Part shown: in pieces, positions 7,128 through 34,804 of the stretch
Position numbering within the stretch: the first letter of the stretch is position 1
How the letters are laid out: each line of letters opens with the position of its first letter
From: Myxococcales bacterium
GTDB taxonomy: Bacteria; Myxococcota; Myxococcia; Myxococcales; 40CM-4-68-19
Assembly: GCA_035702105.1 (NCBI GenBank)
Contig: DASSQZ010000148.1
Coordinates: 1-52,779, forward strand
Reading direction: 5' to 3'
Length of the DNA: 52,779 nt
Notes under the pieces: model-generated
What the model was told of the DNA's origin: nothing
Database searches by the model: none
What the model saw: only the letters and a program-made list of their open reading frames with translations
Translations under genes and position numbers: made by a program

Positions 7128-10100
7128 ATGCCGACACGCTCGATCTGCAGCCAGCGCCGGAGCCGATGGATGCCGGGCCGGGCCGGGCGGATCTGTGCCG
7201 CACTCGCCGCATCGCTCCTCGCCGCAGGCGCGTACGCCGACCCGCTCCTGGACGGCGCCGCGTACCTCGCCGGAACGCAGGCAGCCGACGGAAGCTGGGC
7301 GAGTCCGCGGGTGCGCAGCGCGACCGCCACGGCCGAGGCGCTGCGGGCGCTGCAGGCCCTGGGAGCCGCTCCCTCCGCGCGCGCGGCCGCCGTCTCGAGC
7401 CTGCAGGCGGTCCCGGTGGAGGACAGCGACGATCGCGCGCGCCGCATCCTCGCGCTGCAGGGAGCCTCGGACGTGGGCGCGCTCATCGTCCAACTCGGCG
7501 CCGACGCGGACGCGGGCGGCGGATGGGGGCTGACGGGCTTCTACGCCGCCGAGCCGCTGGCCACCTCGCTCGCGCTTTCGGCCGTAGCGCCCGGCACGGC
7601 GCTCGGCGACGCCGTGCTCGTGCCGGCGCTCTCCGCCCTCCTCCGCGATCAGCGCTCCGACGGCGGCTGGCCCTGCGTCGAGGGCGGGCCGAGCGATCTC
7701 TACTGTTCCGGATCGGCGCTCGTGGCGCTGGCCGGCTACCGCGCCCGCTTCTACGTCCAACCGCAGATCGCCGCCGGGGCTGCCTTCCTCAAAGGACAGC
7801 TCGGCGCGGGCGGCAGCTTCGGGCCGCCGGACGGCGATCCCATCCTCTCCACCGCCGTGGCGGCGCTGGCGCTGGCGTCGGTTCCCGCCGTCTCTTCCGA
7901 GGTGCCGTCGATTTCCGCGTACCTCGCCGGGACGCAAGACGCCGGCGGAAGCTGGGAGAGCGATCCCTATACCACCGCGGTGGTGCTGCAGGCGCTGGTG
8001 GCGCTGGCGCACCTGCCCTTCTGCGGCGACGCCGTGGCCAATCTGTCCGAGGCCTGCGACGGCCCGGATCTGCGCGGCGCCACCTGCGGGAGCATCGGGC
8101 AGGGGACGGGCGCCCTCTCCTGCACCGCTTCCTGCACCCTGGACAGCAGCGGCTGCTCGGGTCCACCCCGCTGCGGCGACGGCGCCGTCAACCTGCCCGC
8201 CGAGGCGTGCGACGGCGCCGATCTCTCCGGGCTCACCTGCGAGGCCCTGGGCCTGGGGCCCGGCACTCTCGCCTGCACCGCGGAGTGCAAGTTCGACACG
8301 CTGGGCTGCTCCGCGCCGCCCCGCTGCGGCGATGGCGTGATCAACCAGGCGCTGGAGTCCTGCGACGGCGCGGACCTGGGCGGCCACACCTGCAAGGACG
8401 TCGGCTTCCTCAGCGGAACGCTGAGCTGCAACCCCGACTGCACGCTCAACGCCGGCGCCTGCGCCGGAGCGCCCTTCTGCGGCGACGGCGTCATCGACCA
8501 GGCGTCGGAAGAGTGCGACCGCCTGGACCTCGCCGGCAAGACCTGCGAGAGCCTGGGCCTGGGCGCAGGCACCCTGGCCTGCACCTCCACCTGCAAGCTG
8601 CAGACGGCGGGATGCGCGTCCTCGGGCGCCGCCGCCCCGCGCTCCATCACGCTGGATGCCGGCTCGCCCATCTGCACCGGCGGCGCCCAGACCGTGCCCG
8701 CCTCCATCAACTTCCCCGCCGGATCGGTGATCGACAAGGTGGACGTCTTCCTGCTCTTCGACGACACCGGCAGTTTCGCCGGCACCGTGCCCTCGGTGAC
8801 GCAGATCTTCAGCCAGCTCGTGGGGCAGTTGCAGACGGCGCTGCCTCAGGTTTCGTTCGGATTCGGCGTCGGCCGGTTCGAGGACTACGGCGGCCCGGGC
8901 GCGAGCTTCAGCGGCGAGGTGAGCACCGGGCGGCCCTTCATCCTCAACCAGCCCATCATCACGCCGGAGGTCGCCAACTTCCTCCCGCTGATCAACAGCG
9001 CCCTCAATCGCACCGCGCCCGGCTTCGGGGGCGACGGCCCCGAGGGCAACATCGAGGCGCTCAAGCAGATCGCCACCGGGTCCGGATTCGACGGCGACGG
9101 CAACGGCTCCACCCTGGGCAGCGGGGCGGCCGGCGCGGCGCTCACCCAGACCTCTCCCGGCGCCAGCGGCGACATCCCCGCCTTCTCGTCGAACGTCGCA
9201 ACCACCTCGGGATCGCTGGGCGGCGTCGGCTTCCGCCCCGGGGCGCTGCACCTCGTGATCAGCGCCGGCGACATCTGCCCGGTGGCGTCCTTCCTCGCCG
9301 GCCAGCCGGTGCCGCCGTCGTTGACCGGCGCAGGCGGCGCCACGGTGCCCACCAGCGCGCTGCTCTGCTCCACCGTGCCGGGCTCGTCGCGCTTCGGCTT
9401 CGTCAGCAACTCCGTCTCCACCACCGGCAACACGGTCGCGGCTGCGGTTGCCCCGCGCGGCGCCGCCACGGTGCCCGAGACCATCGCCGCCCTCAACGCG
9501 CTGGGCATCTCGGTGATCGGCCTCGCGCCGGGGGGAGTGGCCATCCGCAACCCGGTGGGTCCCAGCTCCTCGCCCAGCGTGTCGCTCTCGGCGCTGGCGC
9601 TCCTCACCGGCTCCACCAACGCCCTCGGCAACCCGCTGGTCTTCAACATCTCCGGCGGCACCGGTCCCATCCGCGACGCCATCGTGAGCGCGGTGACCTC
9701 CGCCGCCACCCGGCCGCGCGACGTCTCGCTCACCTTCACCGGGCTTCCCGCCGGCTTGACCGCGAGCTTCACGCCAGGCTCGGTTCCCGGCGTGGGGCCG
9801 GGAGACACCGCGGCCTTCGCGGTCACCTTCTCGGGCGACGGCCGCGTGATCACCGGCGCCTTCGGAATGAACTTCGTGGACATCTCCAGCAACGCCACGC
9901 TGGCGACCGTGCCGGTGACGGCGGCCTGCCTGCCGGTGCCTCCTCTCCCGCCGGACAACGACGGCGACGGCTACCGCGCCGACGTGGACTGCAACGACAA
10001 CGATCCGGCGGTGAATCCGGGCGCGACCGAGATCCCCGGCAATGGCATCGACGACGACTGCAATCCGGCGACCCCGGACGAGGTGCCGCTGGATTCGGCC

Positions 10101-11156
10101 GCCTGCAGACTCTTGCCGGACAAGCTCACCTATTCGGCGGCCGACACCGTCAGCCTGGCGGCCGACGTGGTCAACACCACCGCCGATCGCTCGCTGGCCG
10201 GGCTCACCGCGTCGGTGGACGTCCGGCTCTCGGGGGGAGGCCCGGCGGTCTTCAGCCAGGCCCTGGCGCTGCCGCCGCTGGCGCCGGGCAACCGCCTCGC
10301 CCGCACCTTCGACTTCAGCGCCAACGGCGTTCCGGCGGGCGAGTACAGCGCGCTGATGCAGGTGGTGGGCGGCATCCACGCCGCCGCGTTCTGCTCGGGG
10401 ACCTTCCGGATCGAGAGCTCCGCCGCCAGCACCATCGGCCTCAAAGGCACCCTCTCGGTGGATCCCGCCGTGGTCCGCAGCGCCGCGCCCAGCCAGGCCG
10501 CGTACGCCGTCACCAACTTCGGCAACGGCACCGTGGATCTTCTCGGGCTCAAGATCGTGCTCACCGATCCCGACACCGGCGAGATCCTCGACCTGCTCAC
10601 CGATTCCACCTCGCTCGCGGCAGGAAGCACCTTCTCGGCGACGCAGCCGCTCGCCACCGCGGGCCTGAAGCAGAAGACCTACGTCGCGGTGCTGCTGGCG
10701 GTCCTCCCCTCGGGAGAGGAGGAGACGCTGGCCTTCGCCAACCTCACGGTGGTCAACGCGCCGCCCGACTGCAGCCGCGCCGCGGCGGCGCCGGCGGTGG
10801 ACCTCTGGCCCCCGGATCACCGCTTCGTGGACGTCTCCATCGCCGGGGTCACCGATCCCGACGGCGATCCGGTGACCATCACCATCCTCGAGATACGCCA
10901 GGACGAGCCGGTGAACGCCGCGGGCGACGGCAACACCTGCCCCGACGCGAGCGGCATCGGCACCCCGATTGCGCAGATCCGGTCCGAACGCAGCGGTCCG
11001 CTGGACGGCCGCGTCTACCACATCCGCTTCAACGCCGACGACGGACGGGGCGGCACCTGCCAGGCGCAGGTCACGCTCTGCGTGCCGCACGACCAGCGTC
11101 CCGGCATGGGCTGCGTCGACCAGGGTGCGGTCTTCGACTCCACGCAGTGCCGTTGA
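7128..11156 (+). CDS. Large secreted multidomain protein with terpenoid-cyclase-like repeats, four Myxococcus-type Cys-rich repeats, a VWA-like domain and a D-rich metal-binding motif
   Basis: RBS AAGGAGA. Signal peptide ...[20 protein letters not shown]/GGW repeats (prenyltransferase/squalene-oxidase-like). Four ~50-aa repeats CGDGxVNxxxExCDGADLxGxTCxxLGxGxGTLxCTxxCxxDTxGC. VWA-like segment [50 protein letters not shown] motif. Confidence 0.8.
   Translation: [1342 protein letters not shown]
8022..8622 (+). repeat. 4 tandem ~150-nt (50-aa) Myxococcus-type cysteine-rich repeats inside CDS 7128..11156
   Basis: The protein blocks repeat with conserved Cys spacing (CGD...CDG.DL.G.TC...G.G.GTL.C...C..D..GC). 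The DNA shows matching tandem similarity. Confidence 0.7.
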
Positions 11157-11194: not shown

Positions 11195-14100
11195 ATGTTC
11201 CGATCTCTCAAGGTGCCGTTCATCGCCCTGGTCGTGGTCGTGGCGTTTGCCGCGTACCTGGCTGGTCCGGCGCGCTTCCGCAAGGTGGAGGTGAAGGTCC
11301 CGGCGCCCGCGAGCGCGAGATTGTCCGGCATGGGGGTTCCGCCCCACCGGTTCGGAGCGCCCGGCCCGGGCGGGCCCGGTCGCGCGCTCGCACGCAGGGA
11401 TCCGCCCCCGCAGTCCGCCGACGAGCGCTACAGCGCCGTGCTCGACGACGTGCAAGAGAAGGTCCGGCAGGCGAAGTTGCGGCGCGCCGAGGACCGGCCC
11501 CCGGACGCGGAGGTGAAGGCCATCCGCGGGGATGCAGAGAAGCTCCAGGGCCTGGAGGTCGCCGCCGCCGCGTCGTTCCAGGAGATGGGGCAGCGCCTGC
11601 ACGACGCGAACCTGCCCGGCGTCCTGCAGGAGCGGAACCTGGCTGCCGAGAGGGAGTTCGCGGCGCGCGCCGACGAATTCGGCGCGCTGTTGCGCTCGCT
11701 CGCCTCCGCCGACGATCGGGGCCTCGCCGGCGCGCGCGATGCCGCCCTCGACCGGATCGGCGCCTTCTTCGAACGGCACCTGCAGGGAGGGCCGGTTCAG
11801 AAGGTGGATCCCGGCCGGCTGCCCTTCCGGGGCGCCACGCCCCTGGCGCGGGCGCCCATCGCCTCGGCGGACGAGCTTCCCCAAAGCCTGCGGCCGCCGC
11901 CCGCGGCGCGGCGGACCCGCGCCCTGACCACGTCGGCGCCCGATCCCAACCTTTCGTCCACCGAGGACGTGCAGATCACCCAGCCCATCCGCGATCTCGC
12001 GGCCAGCCTGGGCAACAACCCGGCGCAGATCTTCGGCTGGGTGCGCAACAACGTCGTCTGGTTGCCCACCTACGGCTCGGTCCAGGGGAGCGCGGTCACG
12101 CTGGCCAGCCGCCGGGGGAACTCCTTCGACACCTCCAGCCTGCTGATCGCGCTGCTGCGCGCCGCAGGAGTCCCGGCCCGGTACGTCTACGGCACCATCG
12201 AGGTGCCCGCCACGCGCGTCTCCAACTGGACGGGCGGCCTCACGCCGCTGGCCGCGCAGCAGTTGATGGGGCAGGGCGGCATCCCCAGCGTCGGGATGAT
12301 CGACGGCACGGGCAACGTGGTCGCGGTGCGGCTCGAGCACGTCTGGGTGGAGGCGCTGGCCGACTTCGTGCCTTCGCGCGGCGCGGCGGCGGAGAAGGCG
12401 GACACCTGGGTGCCGCTGGACGCGTCGTTCAAGCAGTACCAGCTGGGCGCGCCCATCGACATCAAGGCGGCGGTGCCGGTGGACGTCGAGGGCACCGCCA
12501 GGGCCGCGGCGTCCACGGCGCTGGTCGATCCCGTGGCGCAGTCGCTGACCGGCTTCGACCAGGGCACGCTCGATTTCTTCATCGACAAAATGGGCGAGGA
12601 CATCGAGCTCAAGTACGGCCCCACGCCGGACGTCGCCCTCTTCACCGGCCCGAGGACCATCACGCCAGCCGTGAGCCAGGTGTTGCCCGGGTCGCTCCCC
12701 AACCGCATCGTCGCCCGCGCCGCCGTCTGGTCCGAGCTGCCCGACAGCCTGCGGCACAAGGTGGCGATGACGCTCTACGCCTCGTCGCTGGACCGGGCCC
12801 TGGACTCGCCTTCGGCAAGCTTCAGGATCAGCCTGCCCGCCCTGGCGGGGCGGAGACTGGGCGTCACCTACGTTCCCGCGACCGACGCCGACGCCGCGGC
12901 GCTGGCCAGCTTCCGCAGCGCGCCCGGGACCGACATGCCGGTGTACCTGGTGCAGGTGCGGCCCTCCATCCGCATCGACGACTCCGAGGTGGCGCTGGGC
13001 CCGCCGGTGACCATGGGCACCTTGCAGGAGTGGGACGCGGGCGTGACCGATCCCACCGATCCGGCCGGCGACATCCACCCCTACACGGTGACGGCCGGCG
13101 ACGAGATGGTCTTCGGCATCGACCCGCAGGGCGCCTCGCAGGAGACCATCCACCAGCGCTTCCTGCAGCGTCCTTCGGACACCGCCGCCGAAAACCTCTT
13201 CACCGTCTCGCTCTATTACTGGGCGCAGTGCGACCTGGTGGCGAGTTCGGCGGCGGTGGCGCAGAACGCCGCGGTCCAGCGCCTGCCCTCCATCGGCCTG
13301 TTCTCGGTGCCGCTGCGGGTCGGCTACTTCTTCGGCTTCCCCCGCACCGGCCACTACGGCCCGCGGCAGATGGACGTGGCGCACTCCATCTTCGCCGTGG
13401 TGGAGAAGGGCAACGGCGACACCTCCGGCATCCTCCGCTCCATCGGCATGCTGGCCTCGGTGCTGGAGGGGCGGACCTTCGACGCGCTCTTCGGCAGGGT
13501 GACCGGCACGGGCGTCTCGGCCGTGCAACTGTTGCGCGAGGCCAACGAGCAGCAGATCCCCATCTACCTGGTCACCCGGGACAACTTCGCCACGGTGGCG
13601 CCGCAGCTCCTGGTGGGCTCCGACATCGTGGCGAGCATCTCGGACGCGGTGCGCGTGGGCAAGACCGTGCTGGTGCCGCAGCGGGCGCCGTTGCACGGCA
13701 ACTGGTCGGGGCTTGGCTACATCATCGAGGACCCCGCGACCGGCGCGGCGGCCTACCTGATCAACGGCGGCACCAGCGGCGGCTCCGACGACCCCTGCAA
13801 TCCGGAGAGCCCCAAGGAGCCGGTGAAGGTGCCGGTGATCGAGATCCTCATCATCGCCATCATCATCCTGCTCATCATCCTGCTGCTGCTCTCCAATCCC
13901 GAGCTGATCCCGGCCATCGGCGCAATCCTGGGCGGCCTGGGGAGGCTCGCGCCGGCGGCGGCGTCGCTCTTGCTCGCGCTGGGAATAGGGTCCACGCCGG
14001 CGATGGCGTCCACTCCCAGTCCCACGCCTCTGCCGGGCGAAGGGCTTGCCCCGCCGGGCGACTGCACGCCCGCGCAATACGCCACCCTGGTGGCGGCGGT

Positions 14101-14314
14101 GGAGGGAAGCTGCAAGTCGGGACCCGCCTGCAAGGGCACCGATTGCGCCACCCTGACCGCGGCGCTGTCCCGCCTGCAGGCCTGCGTCGCCGCGCGGCAG
14201 GACATCATGGTGACCTGCTTCCGCGGCGGCGACCAGGCGCACGTGGACGAGCTCGAGAACGCCAGGCGGGCGGTTGAGAACTGCGCCTGCCGTGTGGCAA
14301 GGTTCTGCGGGTGA
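11195..14314 (+). CDS. Transglutaminase-like domain membrane protein (Cys-to-Ser variant) with a post-TM Cys-rich C-terminal domain
   Basis: RBS GGGGAG. N-terminal signal anchor (VPFIALVVVVAFAAYLAG). The transglutaminase-like core aligns as GNSFDTSSLLIALLRAAGVPARYVYG, with Ser at the catalytic Cys position. The His (LEHVWVEAL) and Asp (WVPLDASF) motifs are retained. There is a hydrophobic helix IEILIIAIIILLIILLLLS at the C-terminus, followed by a ~110-aa tail with 9 Cys. Confidence 0.8.
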   Translation: MFRSLKVPFIALVVVVAFAAYLAGPARFRKVEVKVPAPASARLSGMGVPPHRFGAPGPGGPGRALARRDPPPQSADERYSAVLDDVQEKVRQAKLRRAEDRPPDAEVKAIRGDAEKLQGLEVAAAASFQEMGQRLHDANLPGVLQERNLAAEREFAARADEFGALLRSLASADDRGLAGARDAALDRIGAFFERHLQGGPVQKVDPGRLPFRGATPLARAPIASADELPQSLRPPPAARRTRALTTSAPDPNLSSTEDVQITQPIRDLAASLGNNPAQIFGWVRNNVVWLPTYGSVQGSAVTLASRRGNSFDTSSLLIALLRAAGVPARYVYGTIEVPATRVSNWTGGLTPLAAQQLMGQGGIPSVGMIDGTGNVVAVRLEHVWVEALADFVPSRGAAAEKADTWVPLDASFKQYQLGAPIDIKAAVPVDVEGTARAAASTALVDPVAQSLTGFDQGTLDFFIDKMGEDIELKYGPTPDVALFTGPRTITPAVSQVLPGSLPNRIVARAAVWSELPDSLRHKVAMTLYASSLDRALDSPSASFRISLPALAGRRLGVTYVPATDADAAALASFRSAPGTDMPVYLVQVRPSIRIDDSEVALGPPVTMGTLQEWDAGVTDPTDPAGDIHPYTVTAGDEMVFGIDPQGASQETIHQRFLQRPSDTAAENLFTVSLYYWAQCDLVASSAAVAQNAAVQRLPSIGLFSVPLRVGYFFGFPRTGHYGPRQMDVAHSIFAVVEKGNGDTSGILRSIGMLASVLEGRTFDALFGRVTGTGVSAVQLLREANEQQIPIYLVTRDNFATVAPQLLVGSDIVASISDAVRVGKTVLVPQRAPLHGNWSGLGYIIEDPATGAAAYLINGGTSGGSDDPCNPESPKEPVKVPVIEILIIAIIILLIILLLLSNPELIPAIGAILGGLGRLAPAAASLLLALGIGSTPAMASTPSPTPLPGEGLAPPGDCTPAQYATLVAAVEGSCKSGPACKGTDCATLTAALSRLQACVAARQDIMVTCFRGGDQAHVDELENARRAVENCACRVARFCG

Positions 14315-25413: not shown

Positions 25414-28400
25414 TCAGGACAGCCCGGCCAGGAACTGCGCCGCCCGCTCGCGGTCGAACGAGCTGCCTCCGTCCGGAAGCGTGGCCAGCGCCTCGCGAAC
25501 CACCTCGGCGGCGCGCGCCCCGCCCTTGTCCCTGCGCAGCGCCACGCCGAGCGTCACGGCGCAGCGGACCATCAGGGGCCGCGCCCGCATCGCGCCCGCC
25601 CGCTCCAGCGCGCGCTGCGCATGCTCGACCGCCCGCTCCGGCGAGAGCAGGGCGCGCAGGCGCTGGAGCTCGGGAGACCAGAAGACGTCGCCGGAGCTGG
25701 CGGCGCGGTCCTCCGCCTCGTCCAGCACCGCGAGCGCCTCGTCCCTGCGGCCGGCGGCGGCGAGCACCTCGGCGAGGGCGGCGAGATAGATGGGACGGCG
25801 CGCCCATGCGCCCTCCTCGTCGAGCGAGGCCAGCGCGCCCCGCATCTCGCGCGCTGCGGCGGCCGGATCGCCGCCGGTCCGCGCCCACGCGCCGAGCAGC
25901 GTGCCCCAGTGGCGGTAGTAGGCGAACCCGTGCCGCTCGCAGACGGCGCGCGCCTCGCCGGCGGCCTCCGCGCAGGCCCGCCGGTCGCCGCGCATGTAGT
26001 GCAGCACCGCGGCGTACGCCTGCGCCAGGGCCTCGCTGTAGGCGTGCTCCAGCGCGCGCGCCGTCCGCACCGCCTCGCCGGCACAGGCCAGGGCGCGGTC
26101 CTCCCGTCCCGACATCCAGAGCGCGTGCGCCTCCCAGGCGCTGTTGAAGACGCTCACGTCCGAGCCGAAGACGGTCAGGTGGCGGCGCGCCTCCTCGGGA
26201 TGGTAGAGGCGCCGCGCCTCCTCGAAGTGGTGGATGGCCCGGTCGAACTCGCCGGCGTGGGTGAGCGGTCCCGCCAGCGAGTGGTGGCTCTCGGCCTCGT
26301 ACGAGCCGAGCCGCGCGGCAAGCTCCTGCATCTGCCCGGCGGTCTCGACGGTGCCGGAGAGGTCGCCGGAGACGAAGCGCAGGCCCCAGAGGCTGCGCAG
26401 CACCTGGAAGAGCGCAGGCGAGTCTTCCAGGCGCTCGGCGAGCAGGCGCGCGCGCTCCAGCACCTCCTTGAGCTTCGGATCGGTGTAGCCATGGATGGCG
26501 CGGAGCGAGGGCGTCTGTTCGAGCAGCAGCGCCAGCTCGTCGCGGTCGCGGTCGCGGCTCTCGCCCCGCCGCTTCACCAGATCGAGGGCGCGGCCCAGGA
26601 GCGCCACCGCGCGGGAGTGGGCGTAGACCCCGGCAGCCACCCGGGCCGCGCGCCGGTAGTGCTCGGCCGCGCGCTCGGGAAGGCCCGCCAGCTCGCAGTG
26701 GACGGCGAGCGAGGCGCTGATCTCGTCCAGGCTGCTCGCATGCACGAGCTCGAGGGCCTGGGCGACGCGGCGGTGCAACAGGCGCGCGCGGGCCGGGCTC
26801 ACCCCCTGCGTGGCCGCCTCGCGCAAGGCATCGTGGGAGAAGTCGTAGCCGAGCGCCGGGTGCTCGCGGACGATGCGGCGCCGCCAGAGCTCGTCGAGCG
26901 CGGGCACGAGCTCGCTCTCCTCCAGGTCGGCCGCCTCGCGGAGCACGTCGAAGCTGAAGGCGCGGCCGATGGTGGCGGCGCACTCCATCAGATCCCGCGC
27001 CCGGGGCCCGAGCTGCGCGAGGCGGGCGGCGAGCACGGCGCGAACGCGCGGCGAGCGGGAGAGCGGATTCTCCGCTGCCGGCGCATCCGGCGCGGGCGCC
27101 GCGCTCCGGACGTGCAGGTCGGCCCGCAGCGCCTCGAGGGCGAAGAGCGGGTTGCCTTCGCTCAGCTCGTACACCCTCTGCGCGGCCTCCGCGGTCACCG
27201 CCTCGCGCTCCCGCGCTGCAGCGTGGAGCAGGGCCGCCACGTCGTCCGCCCCCAACGGTCCCAGCTCCAGCTCGAGAAGCCCGCCCTCCTGCCGCAGCGC
27301 GAGCAGGAGGCCGCGGGCGGCGTCGTTGTCGGCCAGCTCGCCGCTCCGCGCGGTGGCGACGACGAAGAGCGGCGCCCCCGCGCCGTAGCGGCTGATGAAG
27401 TGCAGGAGCGAGACGGTGGCCGGATCGCACCACTGCAGATCGTCGAGCACCAGCACCACCGGCCGCGTCCCGCCCAGCAGCACCCGCGCGACCGCCTCGA
27501 AGAGCCGCCGCCGCAGCCAGGAATCGGCGCCGCCCGGCGGCTCCGTCTCCACGCCCGGCGGCGCCTCTCCCGACGCAAGCGCCTCGGGCAGGAGGCGCGC
27601 GATCTCGGTGCGCCAGACGGCGTCCACGTCGCCGAGCTGCGCGAAGATGGTGGGGCTTCGCAGCCAGTCCACCACCGGGCCGTAGCTCAGGTGCCCTTCG
27701 GCGGCGTACGCACGGGCGCGGGCCACGCGGGCCCCTTCGTGGCCGGCGAGGCGCGCCACCTCGTCGGCGAGGCGCGACTTGCCGATGCCGGGCTCGCCCA
27801 GGATGCAGGCCATCCTCGGGCCTCCCGCGCCGGCGGCCCGGAAGGCGCGCAGCAGCCGCTCGCGCTCCGCGGCGCGGCCCACCAGCGCCCAGGCCTCGGG
27901 TGAGGCGCGTCCTGCGGGCCGCGGCTCGCCCTGCGCCGGGTCGCCCTCCACAAGACTGCGGTACAGCTCCCGCGTCTCCAGCGCCGGTTCCACCCCCAGC
28001 TCGCGCTCGAGCAGGTGGGCGCAGCGGTGATAGGTGTGCAGCGCCGCGGCCCGGTCGGACGCGGCGGCGTGCAGCCGCATCAGCGTGCGATAGCCGATCT
28101 CGTCGAGCGGATCGATCTCGGTCAGGCGGCGCGCCCAGCGGATTCCTTCGAGCAGATCGCGGCGCTCCTCCAGGAGCGCGGTCAGGCGCCGCAGCGCCGC
28201 CTTGACCTCTTCCTTCAGCCGCTCCCGCTCCGCGCCGAGCCACTCGCTGAAGCACTCGGGAAAGAGATCGCCGGCGTACTGTTGCGCCGCCTCCGCCAGC
28301 GCCGCGGCCTCCTCGGTCTTGCGCCCCGCGCCCCGCGCGGCCCCGGCGCGGGCCAGCGCGCGCCTCAGGTCGTGGAGGTCCGAGCCGATCTGGTCCGGGT

Positions 28401-28689
28401 GGATCGCGAGCTGCGCTCCGCTGGCGTCGATGGCCGCCTCGCCCCGCGGAAGCACGCGGCGGAGCTGGTGCAGCTCGCGGCGCAGGTTGGTGCGGGCCTG
28501 CGCCTCGCCCGACTCCGGCCAGAGCCGGGTCGCGATGCGCTCCCGCGAGACGGGCTGGCCGGCCTCGAGCAGGAGGAGCGCGAGCAGCTCGCTCCCGCGC
28601 GACGACACCGGCTCGCGCAGCGGGTCGCCGCCCGCCGAGATGCGGAACCGGCCCAGCAGGTCGACGCGGAAGGGCTCGTCTTGCGCCAC
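25414..28689 (-). CDS. SARP/AfsR-family transcriptional regulator (BTAD winged-helix, P-loop NTPase, TPR region)
   Basis: The N-terminus FRVDLLGRFRISAGGDPL... is an OmpR-type winged helix/BTAD. Walker A ILGEPGIGKSRLADEV. A long alpha-helical TPR-like C-terminal half. 1091 aa. Confidence 0.8.
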   Translation of the reverse strand: MAQDEPFRVDLLGRFRISAGGDPLREPVSSRGSELLALLLLEAGQPVSRERIATRLWPESGEAQARTNLRRELHQLRRVLPRGEAAIDASGAQLAIHPDQIGSDLHDLRRALARAGAARGAGRKTEEAAALAEAAQQYAGDLFPECFSEWLGAERERLKEEVKAALRRLTALLEERRDLLEGIRWARRLTEIDPLDEIGYRTLMRLHAAASDRAAALHTYHRCAHLLERELGVEPALETRELYRSLVEGDPAQGEPRPAGRASPEAWALVGRAAERERLLRAFRAAGAGGPRMACILGEPGIGKSRLADEVARLAGHEGARVARARAYAAEGHLSYGPVVDWLRSPTIFAQLGDVDAVWRTEIARLLPEALASGEAPPGVETEPPGGADSWLRRRLFEAVARVLLGGTRPVVLVLDDLQWCDPATVSLLHFISRYGAGAPLFVVATARSGELADNDAARGLLLALRQEGGLLELELGPLGADDVAALLHAAAREREAVTAEAAQRVYELSEGNPLFALEALRADLHVRSAAPAPDAPAAENPLSRSPRVRAVLAARLAQLGPRARDLMECAATIGRAFSFDVLREAADLEESELVPALDELWRRRIVREHPALGYDFSHDALREAATQGVSPARARLLHRRVAQALELVHASSLDEISASLAVHCELAGLPERAAEHYRRAARVAAGVYAHSRAVALLGRALDLVKRRGESRDRDRDELALLLEQTPSLRAIHGYTDPKLKEVLERARLLAERLEDSPALFQVLRSLWGLRFVSGDLSGTVETAGQMQELAARLGSYEAESHHSLAGPLTHAGEFDRAIHHFEEARRLYHPEEARRHLTVFGSDVSVFNSAWEAHALWMSGREDRALACAGEAVRTARALEHAYSEALAQAYAAVLHYMRGDRRACAEAAGEARAVCERHGFAYYRHWGTLLGAWARTGGDPAAAAREMRGALASLDEEGAWARRPIYLAALAEVLAAAGRRDEALAVLDEAEDRAASSGDVFWSPELQRLRALLSPERAVEHAQRALERAGAMRARPLMVRCAVTLGVALRRDKGGARAAEVVREALATLPDGGSSFDRERAAQFLAGLS

Positions 28690-28769: not shown

Positions 28770-29654
28770 ATGCCGTGCGCGGCCGCCGCCCTTTCGCTTT
28801 CGCTCCTGCTCGCCGCCGGTCCGTCCGCCGGCGAGCCGCCGCCCTCGTGCCCCGACTGCGCGCTCTGGAACCGGGCGCAGGCGCCCTTCCGCATCTTCGG
28901 CAACACCTGGTACGTCGGCGTCCACGGGCTGGCCGCGGTGCTCATCACCTCGCCGCAAGGGCACGTGCTCATCGACGGCGACCTGCCGGAATCCGCGCCG
29001 AGGATCGCAGCGAACATCGGCGCGCTCGGCTTCGGCATCAAGGACGTGAAGCTCATCCTCAACACCCACGTGCACTTCGATCACGCGGGCGGCATCGCCG
29101 CGCTGCAGCGCCTGAGCGGGGCGCGGGTGGCCGCGAGCGAACTGAGCGCCCCCGTGCTCCGCCGCGGCGGGTCCGGCCCCGACGATCCGCAGTACGGCAT
29201 GCTCCCGCCCATCGAGAAGATCGGCGAGGTGGCCGTCTTCCACGACGGCGAGACGCTCGACGTCGGCCCCATCGCGGTCACCGCGCACCTGACGCCGGGA
29301 CACACGCCGGGCGGGACGAGCTGGACCTGGAAATCCTGCGAGAAGGCGCGCTGCCTCGACGTGGTCTACGCCGACAGCCTGACGCCCGTTTCCGCTCCCG
29401 CGTTCGAGTTCAGCCGCAGCAGGCAGTACCCGAACGCGGTGGCGGACTTCGAGCGGAGCTTCGCGACGCTCGAGTCCCTGCCCTGCGGGATCCTGATCAC
29501 CACGCATCCCGACGCCTCGGACTTCTGGGGCAGGGTCGAGCGGCGTTCCCGCGGCGACGCCAGCGGGCTGATCGATGCGAAGGCCTGCGCCAGGTATGCA
29601 GCCGCGGGCCGCGAGCGGCTTCGCAGGCGGCTCGCGACGGAAGGCGTCAGGTAG
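28770..29654 (+). CDS. Subclass B3 metallo-beta-lactamase-fold hydrolase (secreted)
   Basis: Signal peptide. LIDGDLPE...NTHVHFDHAGG (HxHxDH zinc motif) with later His/Asp ligands (TPGHTPGGTSW, ITTHPD). The layout is typical of L1/GOB/FEZ-like B3 enzymes. Confidence 0.8.
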   Translation: MPCAAAALSLSLLLAAGPSAGEPPPSCPDCALWNRAQAPFRIFGNTWYVGVHGLAAVLITSPQGHVLIDGDLPESAPRIAANIGALGFGIKDVKLILNTHVHFDHAGGIAALQRLSGARVAASELSAPVLRRGGSGPDDPQYGMLPPIEKIGEVAVFHDGETLDVGPIAVTAHLTPGHTPGGTSWTWKSCEKARCLDVVYADSLTPVSAPAFEFSRSRQYPNAVADFERSFATLESLPCGILITTHPDASDFWGRVERRSRGDASGLIDAKACARYAAAGRERLRRRLATEGVR

Positions 29655-29662
29655 CGCGGCCT

Positions 29663-30274
29663 TCAGCCTGCCGCCTCCATCGCCAGGAGCGTGCGCTTGG
29701 CCTCGGGACCGCCCAGGTATTCGCCCAGGGTGCCGTCGCTGCGCACGACGCGGTGGCAGGGCACCACCAAGGGCAGCGGGTTGTGCGAACAGGCGCTCGC
29801 GGCGGCGCGGACCGCCGAGGGACGGCCGGCGGCCCTGGCCACCGCGGTGTAGCTCTCGGTCCTGCCGTAGGGAATCTCGCGCAGGTGGAGGAGCACCGAG
29901 TGCCGGAACCCGCGGGCGAGCTGCAGATCGACGGGCACCGTGAAGGCGCGGCGCTTGCCGGCGAAGTATTCGTCGAGCTGGCGCGCGGCCTTGTCGAGGC
30001 GCCGCGGCGTGTGGAGGATGCGCGGGCTCACCTCGGCGGCGAGGCGGGTCAGCACCGAGTCGTGATCCTCGCGGCCGAAGGCCACCCGGACGAGGCCCTT
30101 TCCCGTCGCGGCCAGGAGCAGCGGCCCGAGCGGGCTGTCGATGGTGCGGTACGACACGTCGAGCAGGCCCTGCCGCTCCGCCCGCGCGGCGAGCCGCAGG
30201 CGCAACGATTCCTCGGGCGCGGCGGCGGGGAATTCCTGCTCGATGCGGTGGACGATCTGCTTGTCGGTGATCAT
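29663..30274 (-). CDS. ogt: Methylated-DNA--protein-cysteine S-methyltransferase
   Basis: Active-site motif IPYGRTESYTAVA...LVVPCHRVV (the PCHR nucleophile). The start is at MITDKQIV. The ATG overlaps the stop of the sigma gene (ATGA). Confidence 0.85.
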   Translation of the reverse strand: MITDKQIVHRIEQEFPAAAPEESLRLRLAARAERQGLLDVSYRTIDSPLGPLLLAATGKGLVRVAFGREDHDSVLTRLAAEVSPRILHTPRRLDKAARQLDEYFAGKRRAFTVPVDLQLARGFRHSVLLHLREIPYGRTESYTAVARAAGRPSAVRAAASACSHNPLPLVVPCHRVVRSDGTLGEYLGGPEAKRTLLAMEAAG

Positions 30275-30741
30275 GGCGTTCCTTTCCCGAGACGCTTGCG
30301 CAGGTTTGCGATGCCGTCCGAGGCACTCCGCCGGGCGGCGGTGGCGTTGGAGCCGATGAGCTTGCCGACCTCGGCGTAGGAGAGCCCGGCGAGGTGCCGG
30401 TAGATCACCGCGCCGCGCTGCTTGGGCGGTAGCGAGTCGAGCGCGGAGCGGAGCTCCGGGTCGTGCGCAACCGGCTCCGGCGCGGGGAGGTCGGGCAGTT
30501 CCTGCGAGCCGGCGGCCCGTCGCGCCGCGCCGCGGAGCTGATCGACGGCCTTGCGGTGCGCGATGGTGACGAGCCAGCCGCGGACGTTGCCTCCATCGGG
30601 AAGCCGCGGATAGGCCTGCAGCGCGGAGAGGAAGGTCTCCGACCAGGCATCGGCGGCGTCCGCCGGCCCCACCAGCGCGCGGCAGACGCGCAGCACCAGC
30701 GGGCCGTGCTCGGCCACGATCTCCTCGAAGGGCCGTTTCAT
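30271..30741 (-). CDS. ECF-subfamily RNA polymerase sigma-70 factor
   Basis: Region 2 (VLRVCRALVGPADAADAWSETFLSALQAYPRL...WLVTIAHRKAVDQLR) and region 4 (LPPKQRGAVIYRHLAGLSYAEVGKLIGSNATAARRSASDGIANLRKRL). No adjacent anti-sigma gene. Confidence 0.8.
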   Translation of the reverse strand: MKRPFEEIVAEHGPLVLRVCRALVGPADAADAWSETFLSALQAYPRLPDGGNVRGWLVTIAHRKAVDQLRGAARRAAGSQELPDLPAPEPVAHDPELRSALDSLPPKQRGAVIYRHLAGLSYAEVGKLIGSNATAARRSASDGIANLRKRLGKGTP

Positions 30742-31433
30742 CTTGCGTCGTGGAAGACGAGGCCCAGGGTGTGGCGCCGGCCCGAGCGCAGCACGCTGAC
30801 GCCGTGGCGCATCGGCGCGGCGGACCAGCCGCGTTGCCTGGCCACCGGCCGCTCGCGGGTGGTGAAGACGAGCCCGTGGCCCTGGTCGATGACGCTGCTG
30901 GTGCCGCGAGACTGCGCCCGCGGCCGCTGCTCCAGGGTGATGAACTCCCCGCCGGTATAGTCCACGCCCGGCCGGTCGAGGCCGATGACCACCTGCAGCG
31001 GAAACACCAGGTCGCCGTAGAGGTCGCGGTGCAAGGCGTTCCAGTCGCCCGGACCGTAGCGGAGAAGGAGCGGCGTGGGGCGCGTCTGCCCCTCTTCATG
31101 GCACTGCTCGATCCACTCCTCGAAGCGGTCCGGCCAGGGCGCGGGCCGTCCCAGCCGCTCCGCCCACGCCCTGGCGATGGGCAAGAGGTGCGGCCAGAAC
31201 GCGGTCCGCAGCTCCGCGACGAGGCTCGGCACGGGATGGTCGAAGTAGCGGTACTGGCCCTGTCCGAAGCGGAAGCGCGCCATGTCGATGGTGGAGCGGA
31301 AACGGCGGTCGTCGTCGTAGAGCCCGGCAATCGCCCTGCAGTCCTTCGGGGAGAGGACGGGGCCGGTGGGCGAGGAGCCAAGCTCGTCGAGGGTCCGCGA
31401 GATCGCGGCCCAGTCCAGCGCCGCCACGTTCAC
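30738..31433 (-). CDS. 2OG-Fe(II) oxygenase superfamily protein (second dioxygenase of the operon)
   Basis: The GTG start overlaps the AlkB stop (GTGA). HxD...H iron-ligand pattern (ALHRDLYGD ... DQGHGLVF). A double-stranded beta-helix-like C-terminal half. The exact family is not identified. Confidence 0.6.
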   Translation of the reverse strand: MNVAALDWAAISRTLDELGSSPTGPVLSPKDCRAIAGLYDDDRRFRSTIDMARFRFGQGQYRYFDHPVPSLVAELRTAFWPHLLPIARAWAERLGRPAPWPDRFEEWIEQCHEEGQTRPTPLLLRYGPGDWNALHRDLYGDLVFPLQVVIGLDRPGVDYTGGEFITLEQRPRAQSRGTSSVIDQGHGLVFTTRERPVARQRGWSAAPMRHGVSVLRSGRRHTLGLVFHDAR

Positions 31434-32185
31434 AGCCCGGTCTCCCGCAGGGTGATGCTCACCCTGCCCGGGGGAAGACCGAGGCCGTCCGGAGCCGTCC
31501 CCTGCAGCACCCGGGGGACGCCGTGGTAGATGCGCCGGCTCGGCCCGCCGAAGACCAGCAGGTCGCCGGAGCGCAACTCCACGTCGACGAAGGGAGCCGT
31601 GCGCCGGCCCACTCCGGCGAAGCGGAACAGGCAGGTGTCGCCCAGGCTGAGCGTGACCACCGGAGCCTCGCTCGGTTCCTCGCCGTCGAGATGCAGGCCG
31701 AGTCGCGCCTCGGGGCCGTAGAGGTTCACGATGGCGGCGTCGGGCGCGTAGGAGTCCCCGACCCGCGGCCCGAAGGCATCGGCGACGGCGGCGCGCCCCA
31801 GCTCGACGAGCTCGGCCGGCAACGGCTTGACCGGCGCGCCGTCGGTGTCGTCGGCGGTCCTCGAATAGGCATAGGGCTCCCAGTGCCATCCCAGGCACAC
31901 CGACTGGACGCTCATCAGATGTCCGCTCGGGACGCGCGGATGCCGGAGCCCTGCGGGCGGCAACGCCCACCGCCGGAAGGCGGCCGCGAGGGCTCGCTGC
32001 GCATCGGGGCCCAGCCACCCGGAGATCTTCACGGCGCCCGGGAGGAGGTCCTCGCGGGCGCGGGCAGGGGAGGGGACGCCGAGAGCGAGCTGCCTCTGCC
32101 CCTGCGGCGGACCGGGCGCGGTGGGGACTCCGCCCAGCCGGCTGCGGCCCATCCTGCCCCGCGACGATGGCGCGTTTGCGGTCAT
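31430..32185 (-). CDS. alkB: Alpha-ketoglutarate-dependent DNA/RNA alkylation-repair dioxygenase
   Basis: The AlkB signature is present throughout: ISGWLGPDAQRAL, PSGHLMSVQSVCLGWHW, YAPDAAIVNLYGPEARLGLHLDGEE, PVVTLSLGDTCLFRF, SGDLLVFGGPSRRIYHGVPRV, GRVSITLRE. Confidence 0.8.
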   Translation of the reverse strand: MTANAPSSRGRMGRSRLGGVPTAPGPPQGQRQLALGVPSPARAREDLLPGAVKISGWLGPDAQRALAAAFRRWALPPAGLRHPRVPSGHLMSVQSVCLGWHWEPYAYSRTADDTDGAPVKPLPAELVELGRAAVADAFGPRVGDSYAPDAAIVNLYGPEARLGLHLDGEEPSEAPVVTLSLGDTCLFRFAGVGRRTAPFVDVELRSGDLLVFGGPSRRIYHGVPRVLQGTAPDGLGLPPGRVSITLRETGL

Positions 32186-32228
32186 GCGTGGACAACGCGG
32201 ACGCTACCCGATCTGTGAGGTCCGTTCC

Positions 32229-32639
32229 CTACCGGGCGGTCCGAGCGGCCCGCCCCGGCAGGCCCGCGCCGGCCCCGACCAGGGCGCCCATCGCGGCGTA
32301 GCCGAGAAAGTGCGGGCTGGGAAGCACCGCGACGAAGGCCACGATCCCGAAGGTCACATAGGTTCCGGCGACCACCCACAGCGGCGCGGGCGAGGGAGCA
32401 TTGCCGCGCAGCAGCGATGCCGCCGCGCCCAGGACCAGCGCCGCGAACCCGAACATCGCCACCACGCTGAAGTAGAGGACCAGCGAGATGGCCAGCAACA
32501 AGGTGCGGCGGACGCCGAGCTCCAGCATGTCCTCGCGGAGGTGCGGCACATTGACGGCGCCGTGAACGATCGCCGCCGCCACGATGGCGATGCCTCCGGC
32601 GAGAAGGAGAATGAAGCGAATCGGATCACGCAAGGTCAT
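32229..32639 (-). CDS. Small integral membrane protein (136 aa, 4 predicted TM)
   Basis: MTLRDPIRFILLLAGGIAIVAAAIVHG... is hydrophobic. The ATG overlaps the stop of the upstream acyl-CoA synthetase (ATGA). Confidence 0.5.
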   Translation of the reverse strand: MTLRDPIRFILLLAGGIAIVAAAIVHGAVNVPHLREDMLELGVRRTLLLAISLVLYFSVVAMFGFAALVLGAAASLLRGNAPSPAPLWVVAGTYVTFGIVAFVAVLPSPHFLGYAAMGALVGAGAGLPGRAARTAR

Positions 32640-34417
32640 CTGGCTCCTCTGCTCCCGGATGGTGGAACTTCCGATGGCGGCGCGCCACTGATGCTCTGCG
32701 CCACCTCCCGCGCCCTGCGCCGGTCGAGCTTCGCGTTCCCGCCGCGCGGCAGCTTCTCCACCGTGAATGCGCGCCGCGGCCTGCGGTAGGGAGCGACGCG
32801 GGAGGCGGCCCATTCGACGAACTCCTGGGCGTCGAATCCTACCCGCGCCACCACCAGCGCGACCGGGATCTCGCCGAGCCGCTCCTCCGGCACGCCCACC
32901 ACCGCCAGCTCCTGCACCAGGGGATGCCCGCGAAGCTCCTGCTCCACTTCCGCCGGAAAGACCGAGAACCCGCCCACCTTGATCCGGTCGGCGGTGCGCC
33001 CCACGAAGGCGAAGGTGCCCGCGGGCCCCAGCCGCGCGATGTCGCCGGTCGCAAACCATCCGCCGTCGGGCACGCCCCCGCTGCCCTGGTACCCGGCGAA
33101 CACGCCCTTGCCCTTGAGCTGCAGCTCGCCGGTTCCGCCGATGCGGCGCGGCCTGCCCTCCGCGTCGACCACGCGCGCGGAGAAGCCGGGCAGCACCAGG
33201 CCGATGGCCGGCAGCTCCCGTCCGCGCGGAGCGGGCGGATAGAAGCGGACGGCGGCCGGTCCGGCCAGCTCGACCATCCCGTACACGTCGGCGAAGGCCG
33301 CGGTTCCCAGGCGCCATCCCGCCGGCCGCACCAGCGCGCCATAGCCCTGGAAACGCCGCGCGCGATCGGGCGGCATCGCGTCGGCGGCGCTCACCCACAG
33401 CTCGATGCTGGAGAGATCGCGCTGCGCGGCGCCCGCGGTCTCCAGGTCGGCGTACATCGTCGGCACGCCCACGAACACGTTGGGCTGGTCCTCCTCGATC
33501 CGCTCCAGCACCTTCGCGGCGTCGAACCGCTCCAGGTGGATGACCTTCACTCCTGCGCAGAGCGCGCCGATCAGGGTGCCGAGGCCCATCACGTGCGAGA
33601 GCGGCAGCGCCACGATGACCACGTCGCGACCCGGGCGCAGCCAGCGCCGATGACCCACCGGGAGCGCGTGGACGCGGCCCAGGGCGCCGAGCAGCCCGCG
33701 GCTGGTGAGCCGGGCCACCTTCGGCATTCCCGTGGTCCCGGAGGTGCAGAGAAGGATTCCGGGCGCATCGGCGTCCAGGGGAGCCGGCTGCGCGGACTCG
33801 TGGGGATGCGCGGAGAGCCAGGCGGCGAGATCGAAGCCGTCGCGGAGAGGCGCTCCGCCGGCGCCGGTCCAGAGGACGCGCAGCGGCCGCCCTGCAGGAG
33901 GCGCTGGAGCGGCTGCGAGGAGCGGCGCGGCGGCGTCGGCATCGGCGACCAGCGCCTCCGCGCCGGCGGCCGAGATCGCGGCGGCCTGCTCGTCCGGCCG
34001 CAGCCGAGCGTTGAGCGGAAGCGGCACGCGGCCCGCGCGGGAAATGGCCAGCACGTGCAGGAGCACGTCGATTCGGTTCGCGCAGAGGATCGCCACGGTG
34101 TGAGGGTCGCCGGGCAACGCCGCCTGGCAGGCCGCCGCCAGCCGCCCCACGTCCTCGTCGAGCGCGGCATACGTCCGCAGGCGCCGGGGAAGGCCGGGCG
34201 TGGCCGTCTCGGCGGCGATGGCGGGGCGATCGCCGTACGCCTCCGCAAGCACCCGCGTCAGCTCTCCGAGCGGCAGCCCGCCACCGAAGACGAGGCGCGC
34301 CCGCGCAGCCGCCGTGCGCGCCGCCGCTGCGACCTCTGCGAGGCCACGCATCCCGGCCCTCCTGCACGCGTGAGTGACATCTTTTGCATCCGGCGGCAAC
34401 CCCAGAGGGCCAGGCAT
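32636..34417 (-). CDS. AMP-dependent synthetase/ligase (acyl-CoA synthetase family)
   Basis: AMP-binding motif ILCTSGTTGMPKVARLTSRGL plus downstream adenylate-forming core motifs. The start is uncertain; an alternative ATG lies at 34351. Confidence 0.8.
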   Translation of the reverse strand: MPGPLGLPPDAKDVTHACRRAGMRGLAEVAAAARTAAARARLVFGGGLPLGELTRVLAEAYGDRPAIAAETATPGLPRRLRTYAALDEDVGRLAAACQAALPGDPHTVAILCANRIDVLLHVLAISRAGRVPLPLNARLRPDEQAAAISAAGAEALVADADAAAPLLAAAPAPPAGRPLRVLWTGAGGAPLRDGFDLAAWLSAHPHESAQPAPLDADAPGILLCTSGTTGMPKVARLTSRGLLGALGRVHALPVGHRRWLRPGRDVVIVALPLSHVMGLGTLIGALCAGVKVIHLERFDAAKVLERIEEDQPNVFVGVPTMYADLETAGAAQRDLSSIELWVSAADAMPPDRARRFQGYGALVRPAGWRLGTAAFADVYGMVELAGPAAVRFYPPAPRGRELPAIGLVLPGFSARVVDAEGRPRRIGGTGELQLKGKGVFAGYQGSGGVPDGGWFATGDIARLGPAGTFAFVGRTADRIKVGGFSVFPAEVEQELRGHPLVQELAVVGVPEERLGEIPVALVVARVGFDAQEFVEWAASRVAPYRRPRRAFTVEKLPRGGNAKLDRRRAREVAQSISGAPPSEVPPSGSRGAR

Positions 34418-34452
34418 GCCGGACCGCCGCTCCGTCCTCAGCTTTCAGGCGG

Positions 34453-34804
34453 ATGTCGCGCGAGAACCCATCGCAGGTCTCGGTGAAGACCGCGGGCACG
34501 GTCACCCTCACGGTGCTGGGCATCGCTTTCGTCGCCTGGTTCTTCTGGAAGACCACCGGCGCCCTGCTCGTCACCATCCTGGCCCTGCTGGTCTCGGTGG
34601 CGCTCAATCGCGTCGTCGCCTGGCTCGAGCGGCACCACGTCCGCCGCGGGTACGGCATCGCCATCGCCATGACGGCGGTCGCCGGGCTGCTCGTCGCGCT
34701 CGGGTTCCTCTTCGTCCGCCGTGCTCTTCCTCGCCGGCTGGGGCGGAATCCCCGGCGCCATCCTGGCGGTGCCGCTGACCGCCGCGCTGCCCGGCGGCAG
34801 GTGA
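34453..34804 (+). pseudogene. Remnant of an AI-2E (PerM/UPF0118) family transporter gene with an internal deletion
   Basis: An N-terminal ~90 aa with the AI-2E pattern (LLVSVALNRVVAWLERHHVRRGYGIAIAMTAVAGLLVALGFLFV) joins out of frame to the characteristic C-terminus (VLFLAGWGGIPGAILAVPLTAALPGGR*) ending at 34804. The ~230-aa TM core in between is missing. Confidence 0.45.

Follow-up and report, generated by a model that had tools for sequence, protein, structure and literature searches.

An alkylation-repair operon with an embedded ECF sigma factor and an extended Ogt as its candidate sensing partner: a probable Ada-independent regulon in Myxococcota and Actinobacteria

To our knowledge, the Ada response of Escherichia coli is the textbook bacterial system for sensing alkylation damage and essentially the only one that is understood mechanistically. 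Its regulon (ada-alkB, alkA and aidB) is inducible, joins an O6-alkylguanine alkyltransferase to AlkB, relies on a suicide alkyl acceptor as sensor and places regulator and repair genes together in an operon under positive autoregulation. Here we describe a four-gene operon at 29663-32185 on the minus strand of a 72% GC contig from a soil metagenome-assembled genome (MAG) labelled 'Myxococcales bacterium'; the 52,779-nucleotide contig that was analysed is referred to as the window. The operon holds both kinds of repair gene and, as interpreted below, would share the inducible control, the suicide acceptor as likely sensor and the positive autoregulation. It differs from the Ada system in having neither the N-Ada Zn/Cys methylphosphotriester domain nor an AraC-type DNA-binding domain. 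Promoter choice would be made by a dedicated extracytoplasmic function (ECF) sigma factor, whereas Ada is an activator of the sigma70 holoenzyme, and the sensing cysteine would be that of the O6-alkylguanine active site and not Cys38.

Two further systems are close to this operon. In cytoplasmic thiol-based pairs such as SigR-RsrA and SigH-RshA, which involve zinc-binding anti-sigma factors (ZAS), the gene of a soluble partner lies directly downstream of an autoregulated ECF sigma gene and is co-translated with it, and covalent modification of partner cysteines releases the sigma factor; a parallel to these pairs is proposed here. In contrast to these systems, the partner in the window is an enzyme of the MGMT fold without a zf-HC2 anti-sigma domain, and its modification would be an irreversible S-alkylation from DNA and not a reversible oxidation. 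The other system is ECF122, which is a group of the classification of Casas-Pastor et al. 2021 according to a 2022 review (PMC8999054). The review gives 6-O-methylguanine DNA methyltransferase as the conserved neighbour of this group and enters its mechanism as 'unknown'; the reference protein is WP_057211282.1 from Cellulomonas. The elements of the operon are as follows.

31430-32185, minus strand: alkB-family Fe(II)/2-oxoglutarate (2OG) dioxygenase, operon gene 1, 251 aa; Pfam PF13532 2OG-FeII_Oxy_2, E 4.5e-41
30738-31433, minus strand: PF09859 (Oxygenase-NA) Fe(II)/2OG dioxygenase, 231 aa, GTG start; Pfam E 1.5e-79
30271-30741, minus strand: ECF (group 4) sigma factor, 156 aa; Pfam Sigma70_r2 and Sigma70_r4_2, TIGR02937
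29663-30274, minus strand: sigma-coupled O6-alkylguanine-DNA alkyltransferase (Ogt) paralogue, 203 aa; PF02870 Methyltransf_1N and PF01035 DNA_binding_1
30158-30274, minus strand: N-terminal extension of Ogt, residues 1-39, delimited by alignment to Mycobacterium tuberculosis Ogt; carries a conserved helix motif
32191-32220, minus strand: ECF-type promoter-like motif, conserved upstream of the module in relatives

The genes are arranged in the order alkB, PF09859 oxygenase, ECF sigma factor and ogt, and each overlaps the next by four nucleotides, with GTGA at the alkB/oxygenase junction and ATGA at both the oxygenase/sigma and sigma/ogt junctions. A preliminary description of this DNA had reported the four genes, the three junctions and an ECF sigma factor embedded in a repair operon, and all of these are borne out by the gene identities and the window sequence; the same three overlaps also result when genes are called independently on an identical contig from a metagenome. 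That description had further stated that an Ada-type regulatory domain is lacking, and scans against Pfam and NCBIfam indeed found neither an Ada Zn-binding nor an AraC domain in the four operon proteins. The same scans found no anti-sigma domain in the operon or its flanking genes, and no sigma70-type promoters or intrinsic terminators were detected in 29400-34700.

The sigma factor consists of the sigma2 and sigma4 domains only (Sigma70_r2, E 3.3e-14) and scores 65.2 bits against a cutoff of 42.9 in the TIGR02937 sigma70-ECF superfamily model; the two domains, the small size and the model match place it in the ECF (group 4) sigma-70 family. It is probably a member of ECF122, judged by gene context: ogt follows the sigma gene here and in nearly all related loci, as given below, and no recognisable anti-sigma domain is found nearby in the operon or flanking genes. 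The likeness to ECF122 therefore lies in the two-domain sigma factor, the methyltransferase neighbour and the lack of a recognisable anti-sigma domain. The promoter motif, the leaderless geometry, the Ogt extension and the alkB/PF09859 gene content described in the following were not found for ECF122 in the searchable literature, where we likewise found no mention of ECF122 beyond PMC8999054 and no ECF sigma factor experimentally linked to Ogt or AlkB. The operon is thus an example of a catalogued yet uncharacterised kind and is less novel than had been assumed. What is added here, as far as the searchable literature shows, is the motif and its regulon, the leaderless geometry, the near-universal coupling of sigma and ogt, and the sigma-specific extension of Ogt.

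The first of these elements is a promoter-like sequence in the 43-nt gap upstream of alkB. It reads CCTCAC-agatcgggtagcgtccg-CGTTGTC-cacgc-ATG at 32220-32183, where the -35 element CCTCAC (32220-32215) is followed by a 17-nt spacer, the -10 element CGTTGTC (32197-32191), the five nucleotides CACGC and the alkB ATG at 32185. The pattern YCTCAC-N17-CGTNNNC-N5-RTG has one match in the 52.8-kb window against 0.00 expected. A check for an ECF-type -35/-10 promoter, which the preliminary description had proposed, thus gives a candidate directly upstream of alkB. Relaxed forms of the motif also match at 10125, 11152, 23575, 34507 and 16326; these sites lie inside or antisense to coding sequence, are within chance expectation and were not counted as part of a regulon.

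The spacing of the motif also bears on where alkB begins. The N-terminus MT.N.PSSRGR is conserved among AlkB proteins from the ATG located 5 nt past the -10 element, and in four relatives (L009, L078, L100 and L093) this ATG is the sole possible AlkB start. The geometry of the motif, the conserved N-terminus and the lack of other starts in these relatives therefore place the alkB start at ATG 32185 and not at ATG 32152, which was chosen by the gene caller. Given the 5-nt spacing between the -10 element and the ATG, the operon mRNA is probably leaderless.

Conservation of the motif was assessed at 79 loci that carry relatives of the sigma factor, with a single genome taken for each species, and in a second survey of 80 metagenome loci anchored on PF09859. 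The sigma relatives are 55-85% identical to the window protein and come from Myxococcales and Acidimicrobiia MAGs and about 55 Nocardia species; the family is of moderate size, with 46 clusters (50% identity) at E<=1e-30 among 1.8 billion representatives. An alignment of upstream regions, anchored on the start of the first module gene, gave the consensus (C/T)CTCAC, 17 nt, CGT(T/C)NNC, about 5 nt and the start codon. Of the genome loci, 74 have an intact upstream region, and all of these, from Myxococcota, Acidimicrobiia and Nocardia, carry the motif ahead of the first gene of the module (our script scored 72 of the 74, and the remaining two also carry it). The 79 genome loci contain 109 matches to the strict pattern, each of them on the gene strand and with a 17-nt spacer, and nearly all are located immediately ahead of sigma, alkB or a second ogt, with the downstream element 3-6 nt before the start codon.

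The gene content behind the motif was observed to vary more than the motif itself. A clade of soil contigs (L084-L092) shows the same order as the window (motif, alkB, PF09859, sigma, ogt), and the actinobacterial order is sigma-ogt-PF09859, sometimes with alkB before or after, so that a sigma-in-repair-operon arrangement, for which a synteny survey had been suggested, recurs across Myxococcota and Actinobacteria. Among the module loci alkB and PF09859 shift position or are absent. In the metagenome set, the motif also occurs on the correct strand before alkB-PF09859 with no sigma gene within 5 kb (L100) and before PF09859 alone (L103, L114 and L135). One locus (L146, 3524-3696) has two back-to-back copies of the motif, one before alkB and the other, on the opposite strand, before sigma-ogt-PF09859, which gives a divergent form of the regulon. 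In addition, about 35 Nocardia species have a second ogt of canonical length about 1 kb downstream of the module (L017-L079; for example L019, 9112-9683), which has its own TCTCAC-N17-CGTCTAC copy together with an apparent Shine-Dalgarno sequence and a short leader.

Since the motif is found together with the sigma gene in two phyla and lies before several genes of alkylation repair, it points to an autoregulated ECF regulon, and we infer that the sigma factor encoded in the operon recognises CCTCAC-N17-CGTTGTC. The preliminary description had suggested autoregulated, sigma-based control, and a motif conserved before the module is what such autoregulation predicts, with the sigma factor as its presumed reader. 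It is very likely, on this comparative evidence, that the operon belongs to an Ada-independent, autoregulated sigma regulon for alkylation repair. The motif might instead be the operator of an unrelated transcription factor, with the sigma factor serving other targets and its place in the operon being incidental. Such an operator would suit the Nocardia sequence ATCTCAC, which is mirrored by GTGAGAT at the start codon, and the sigma factor's role in reading the motif is presumed in the first place. The inverted repeat is however not conserved outside Nocardia, and an operator would not account for the fixed 17-nt spacer, the CGT downstream element and the restriction of all 109 strict matches to the gene strand. 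A distance of 3-6 nt to the start codon is the geometry of a promoter and not of an operator, and the motif accompanies the sigma gene in both phyla; we consider an operator of this kind very improbable.

The protein identities between Myxococcota and Actinobacteria, which are 55-68% for sigma, 60-69% for Ogt and 63-74% for PF09859, are unusually high and suggest transfer of the module between the phyla. The Burkholderiales label of one MAG that has a copy of the module (L010) may be due to misbinning, or the module may have been transferred once more.

The most conserved association within the module is that of the sigma gene with ogt. The ogt gene directly follows the sigma gene in 78 of the 79 genome loci, the exception being a truncated contig, and the two overlap by four nucleotides (ATGA) in 75 of these 78, the other three including frameshifted long-read MAGs. 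At the metagenome junctions a 4-nt overlap was observed in 27 of 37, and nine of the other ten have another overlap or a 7-nt gap. Four apparent natural sigma-Ogt fusions (P0432, P0438, P0479 and P0480; 348-419 aa) were rejected as frameshift artefacts, being mosaics of in-frame and out-of-frame stretches from error-prone assemblies.

The window Ogt has the N-terminal ribonuclease-like domain, the C-terminal DNA-binding domain and the PCHR active site of the Ogt/MGMT family (TIGR00589, 95.9 bits against a cutoff of 46.4). It is not an Ada protein, as its residues 27-201 match only positions 174-349 of Ada, in the C-terminal half of that protein, with 100.5 bits against a cutoff of 345. The PCHR active site is kept in all 75 sigma-linked Ogts, as is the MGMT DNA-binding helix-turn-helix, and these proteins are therefore predicted to be active alkyltransferases.

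The sigma-coupled Ogt is further set apart by its N-terminus. Ogt of M. tuberculosis (4BHB/4BHC) aligns only from residue 40 of the window protein, which leaves about 39 extra N-terminal residues; a low-confidence AlphaFold2 (AF2) model places two helices in this extension, at residues 4-13 and 21-34. A helix motif, L..RLAA.AE..GLLDV, lies in the extension just before the first beta strand. It was found in 114 of 114 sigma-adjacent Ogts and in 0 of 49 Ogts that are not preceded by a sigma gene, a split that is complete, with counts that are phylogenetically non-independent. The comparative evidence thus supports the extended Ogt as the specific partner of the sigma factor. The preliminary description had stated that no anti-sigma gene is adjacent. 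This holds at the level of domains and does not hold for gene position, as ogt occupies the place of an anti-sigma gene, is coupled and extended, and is likely a regulatory partner. In Nocardia, where the extended Ogt and a canonical one are both present, the pair suggests that one Ogt is the sensor and the other carries out the bulk of repair.

Taken as a whole, an autoregulated sigma regulon for alkylation repair in which the extended Ogt is an alkylation-sensing partner of the sigma factor is the reading that we favour, and we hold it to be somewhat probable. It would operate as follows. The motif would drive a leaderless four-gene mRNA encoding AlkB, the PF09859 oxygenase, the ECF sigma factor and Ogt, and recognition of its own promoter by the sigma factor would provide positive feedback. 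Ogt would keep the sigma factor inactive in a ratio of 1:1, and this would account for why translational coupling of the two genes is conserved. Irreversible transfer of an alkyl group from damaged DNA to the active-site cysteine would then destabilise Ogt and free the sigma factor, and fresh Ogt would sequester it again once the lesions had been cleared. The consumable Ogt/sigma pair would stand in for the Ada methyl sensor; one O6-alkylguanine repaired would mean one sigma released, and transcription of the regulon would be titrated by the lesion load.

Alkylation of MGMT/Ogt proteins destabilises their conformation and leads to their degradation, so that such a release would be workable, and the C-terminal domain of Ada contacts sigma70. 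We infer the binding of Ogt to the sigma factor and its release upon alkylation from gene arrangement and conservation. That Ogt acts as an alkylation-sensing anti-sigma factor is accordingly put forward tentatively, with a chance that falls a little short of even. About as tentative is the notion that Ogt represents a new class of anti-sigma factor, in which a suicide repair enzyme is a consumable sensor and sigma is freed with each lesion repaired.

Several points weigh against the sensing role of Ogt and the regulon around it. Overlaps of four nucleotides are common in high-GC operons and all three junctions of this operon have them, so that coupling alone says little. The inverted repeat that the Nocardia -35 element forms with the start-codon region means that the motif could belong to another regulator. 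The membership in ECF122 is judged from gene context and is no more than probable. The AF2 model of Ogt alone is poor (predicted local distance difference test, pLDDT, 50), and only its secondary structure is usable. A Pfam search with four extensions at E<=10 matched none of the known anti-sigma domains and returned noise only. Finally, the locus sample is phylogenetically skewed, with about 55 Nocardia, and its counts are not independent events. The partner thus does not fall into a known class of anti-sigma domain (zf-HC2/ASD, NepR and others), which lowers the claim of a known anti-sigma type and does not lower that of an anti-sigma-like function.

Some of these points would suit a simpler arrangement, in which the sigma factor controls the operon and Ogt is a mere member of the regulon. 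The sigma factor would then be set by transcription alone, by an unlinked anti-sigma factor or by another signal, and the extension would help Ogt, for example, to bind DNA, to form oligomers or to contact the PF09859 oxygenase. The extension has no known anti-sigma fold and the Ogt model is of low confidence, the 4-nt overlap is not specific to the sigma/ogt junction, and PF09859 also pairs with canonical Ogt in loci without sigma, so that Ogt has other partners in the module. This arrangement would however leave unexplained why the other genes change place and the sigma-ogt junction and order alone stay fixed, why the extension is present in every sigma-adjacent Ogt (114/114) and in none of the others (0/49), and why a second, canonical ogt belongs to the same Nocardia regulon. 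A positively autoregulated sigma factor without an inhibitor would also be hard to switch off. We regard this arrangement as unlikely, although it deserves to be kept in mind.

The adjacency, the coupling, the extension and the intact cysteine would fit equally with a positive role of Ogt similar to that of Ada, where alkylated Ogt binds the sigma factor or the holoenzyme and stimulates transcription. There is a precedent for such a role, as methylated Ada activates transcription by contacting sigma70 and the alpha subunit. ECF sigma factors, however, normally need no activator, and Ogt has no sequence-specific DNA-binding domain beyond the MGMT helix-turn-helix. Moreover, a sigma gene followed by an overlapping partner gene is the classical layout of a sigma/anti-sigma pair. 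A stimulating Ogt is for these reasons judged to be quite improbable.

The two dioxygenases of the operon are assigned with different precision. The PF13532 domain of AlkB spans residues 51-247, and the HxD...H triad and the RxSxTxR motif of AlkB dioxygenases are visible as LHLDGEE, YHGVP and RVSITLR. Its scores in the equivalog models of E. coli AlkB are 97.9 against a cutoff of 267 bits and 84.3 against 231 (NCBIfam NF011930 / TIGR00568). Because these scores are below the cutoffs, the protein is considered as an AlkB-family member of unassigned orthology, with a substrate range that is predicted only.

The second oxygenase is a full-length, high-scoring member of PF09859 (266 bits, with a cutoff of 26.2; the match extends over the whole profile, positions 1-172). 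Residues H135, D137, H210 and R220, which make up the HxD...H...R set, are invariant in 32 homologues. Its AF2 model (pLDDT 83) has as best folds in the PDB the prolyl-4-hydroxylase of Pseudomonas putida and PHD2, with a template modelling (TM) score of about 0.55, and a weaker match to AlkB at about 0.4; all fold matches have 8-16% identity, and no sequence relatives were found in the PDB. The preliminary description had cautioned that membership in a family of known unrelated function, such as proline hydroxylation of proteins, would weaken the repair interpretation; the nearest folds are indeed prolyl hydroxylases, and the caveat applies only weakly. A 353-aa metagenome protein (P0288) is annotated with both PF13532 and PF09859 and may be a true fusion or a read-through or frameshift artefact.

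The PF09859 gene is tightly tied to the sigma-Ogt regulon, and it also pairs with ogt outside of it. In at least seven loci without sigma (L115, L121, L122, L126, L132, L149 and L158) it lies directly downstream of a canonical short Ogt, in neighbourhoods that are otherwise unrelated, and no Ada-type regulator was found beside the pair in the two loci examined. The original prediction for PF09859 is said to be that of Iyer et al. 2009. It is plausible that the protein acts on a second nucleic-acid lesion, as predicted by its Pfam name. The prolyl-hydroxylase-like fold and the pairing with Ogt in the absence of sigma raise the further idea that it acts on or with Ogt, for instance by oxidative S-dealkylation of the alkylated protein, which would reset the sensor or regenerate the suicide enzyme; we treat this as a long shot.

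Two genes upstream of the operon had been proposed to extend the unit to 34417.

32229-32639, minus strand: small hydrophobic membrane protein, 136 aa, without a Pfam or NCBIfam match
32636-34417, minus strand: acyl-CoA synthetase, ATGA-coupled to the small membrane protein gene

The ATGA coupling between these two genes was seen in the sequence as described earlier, whereas the upstream gap, given before as 60 nt, measures 43 nt between the stop of the membrane-protein gene and the alkB start codon (ATG 32185). The extension was rejected. As the promoter-like motif lies between the membrane-protein gene and alkB, and hence downstream of both genes, the unit starts at alkB and not at the acyl-CoA synthetase. 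The two genes are not syntenic with the module elsewhere either: an acyl-CoA synthetase is beside the module in none of the related loci and the membrane protein in one only (L001). They are a separate unit. The membrane protein homologue in L001 is 71% identical and lies directly upstream of alkB.

Other features of the window are a convergent gene downstream of ogt, a regulator gene flanking the operon and two large open reading frames (ORFs) located at a distance from it.

28770-29654, plus strand: metallo-beta-lactamase-fold gene, convergent with ogt, its end 8 nt from the ogt stop
25414-28689, minus strand: AfsR/SARP-like regulator, 1091 aa, with Trans_reg_C, BTAD and AAA_16; flanks the operon
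7128-11156, plus strand: 1342-aa ORF with tandem Cys-rich modules (CGDG..N..E.CDG.DL.G.TC...G.G.G.L.C...C) near the N-terminal third
11195-14314: 1039-aa ORF, which follows the 1342-aa ORF

The 8-nt interval between the ogt stop and the end of the metallo-beta-lactamase-fold gene is too short for a terminator.

Many soil Actinobacteria and Myxococcota carry the sigma-Ogt module instead of the Ada response. With the present comparison, a catalogue entry becomes a testable circuit with a motif, a regulon (alkB, PF09859, sigma and one or two ogt genes), a candidate sensor and cultivable Nocardia hosts. For the function of the PF09859 oxygenase family, no better lead than this module is available. 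If Ogt does act as an anti-sigma factor, an irreversibly consumed enzyme would serve as the sensor, which would be a new principle of ECF signalling, and the pair would provide a compact and orthogonal switch that responds to DNA damage.

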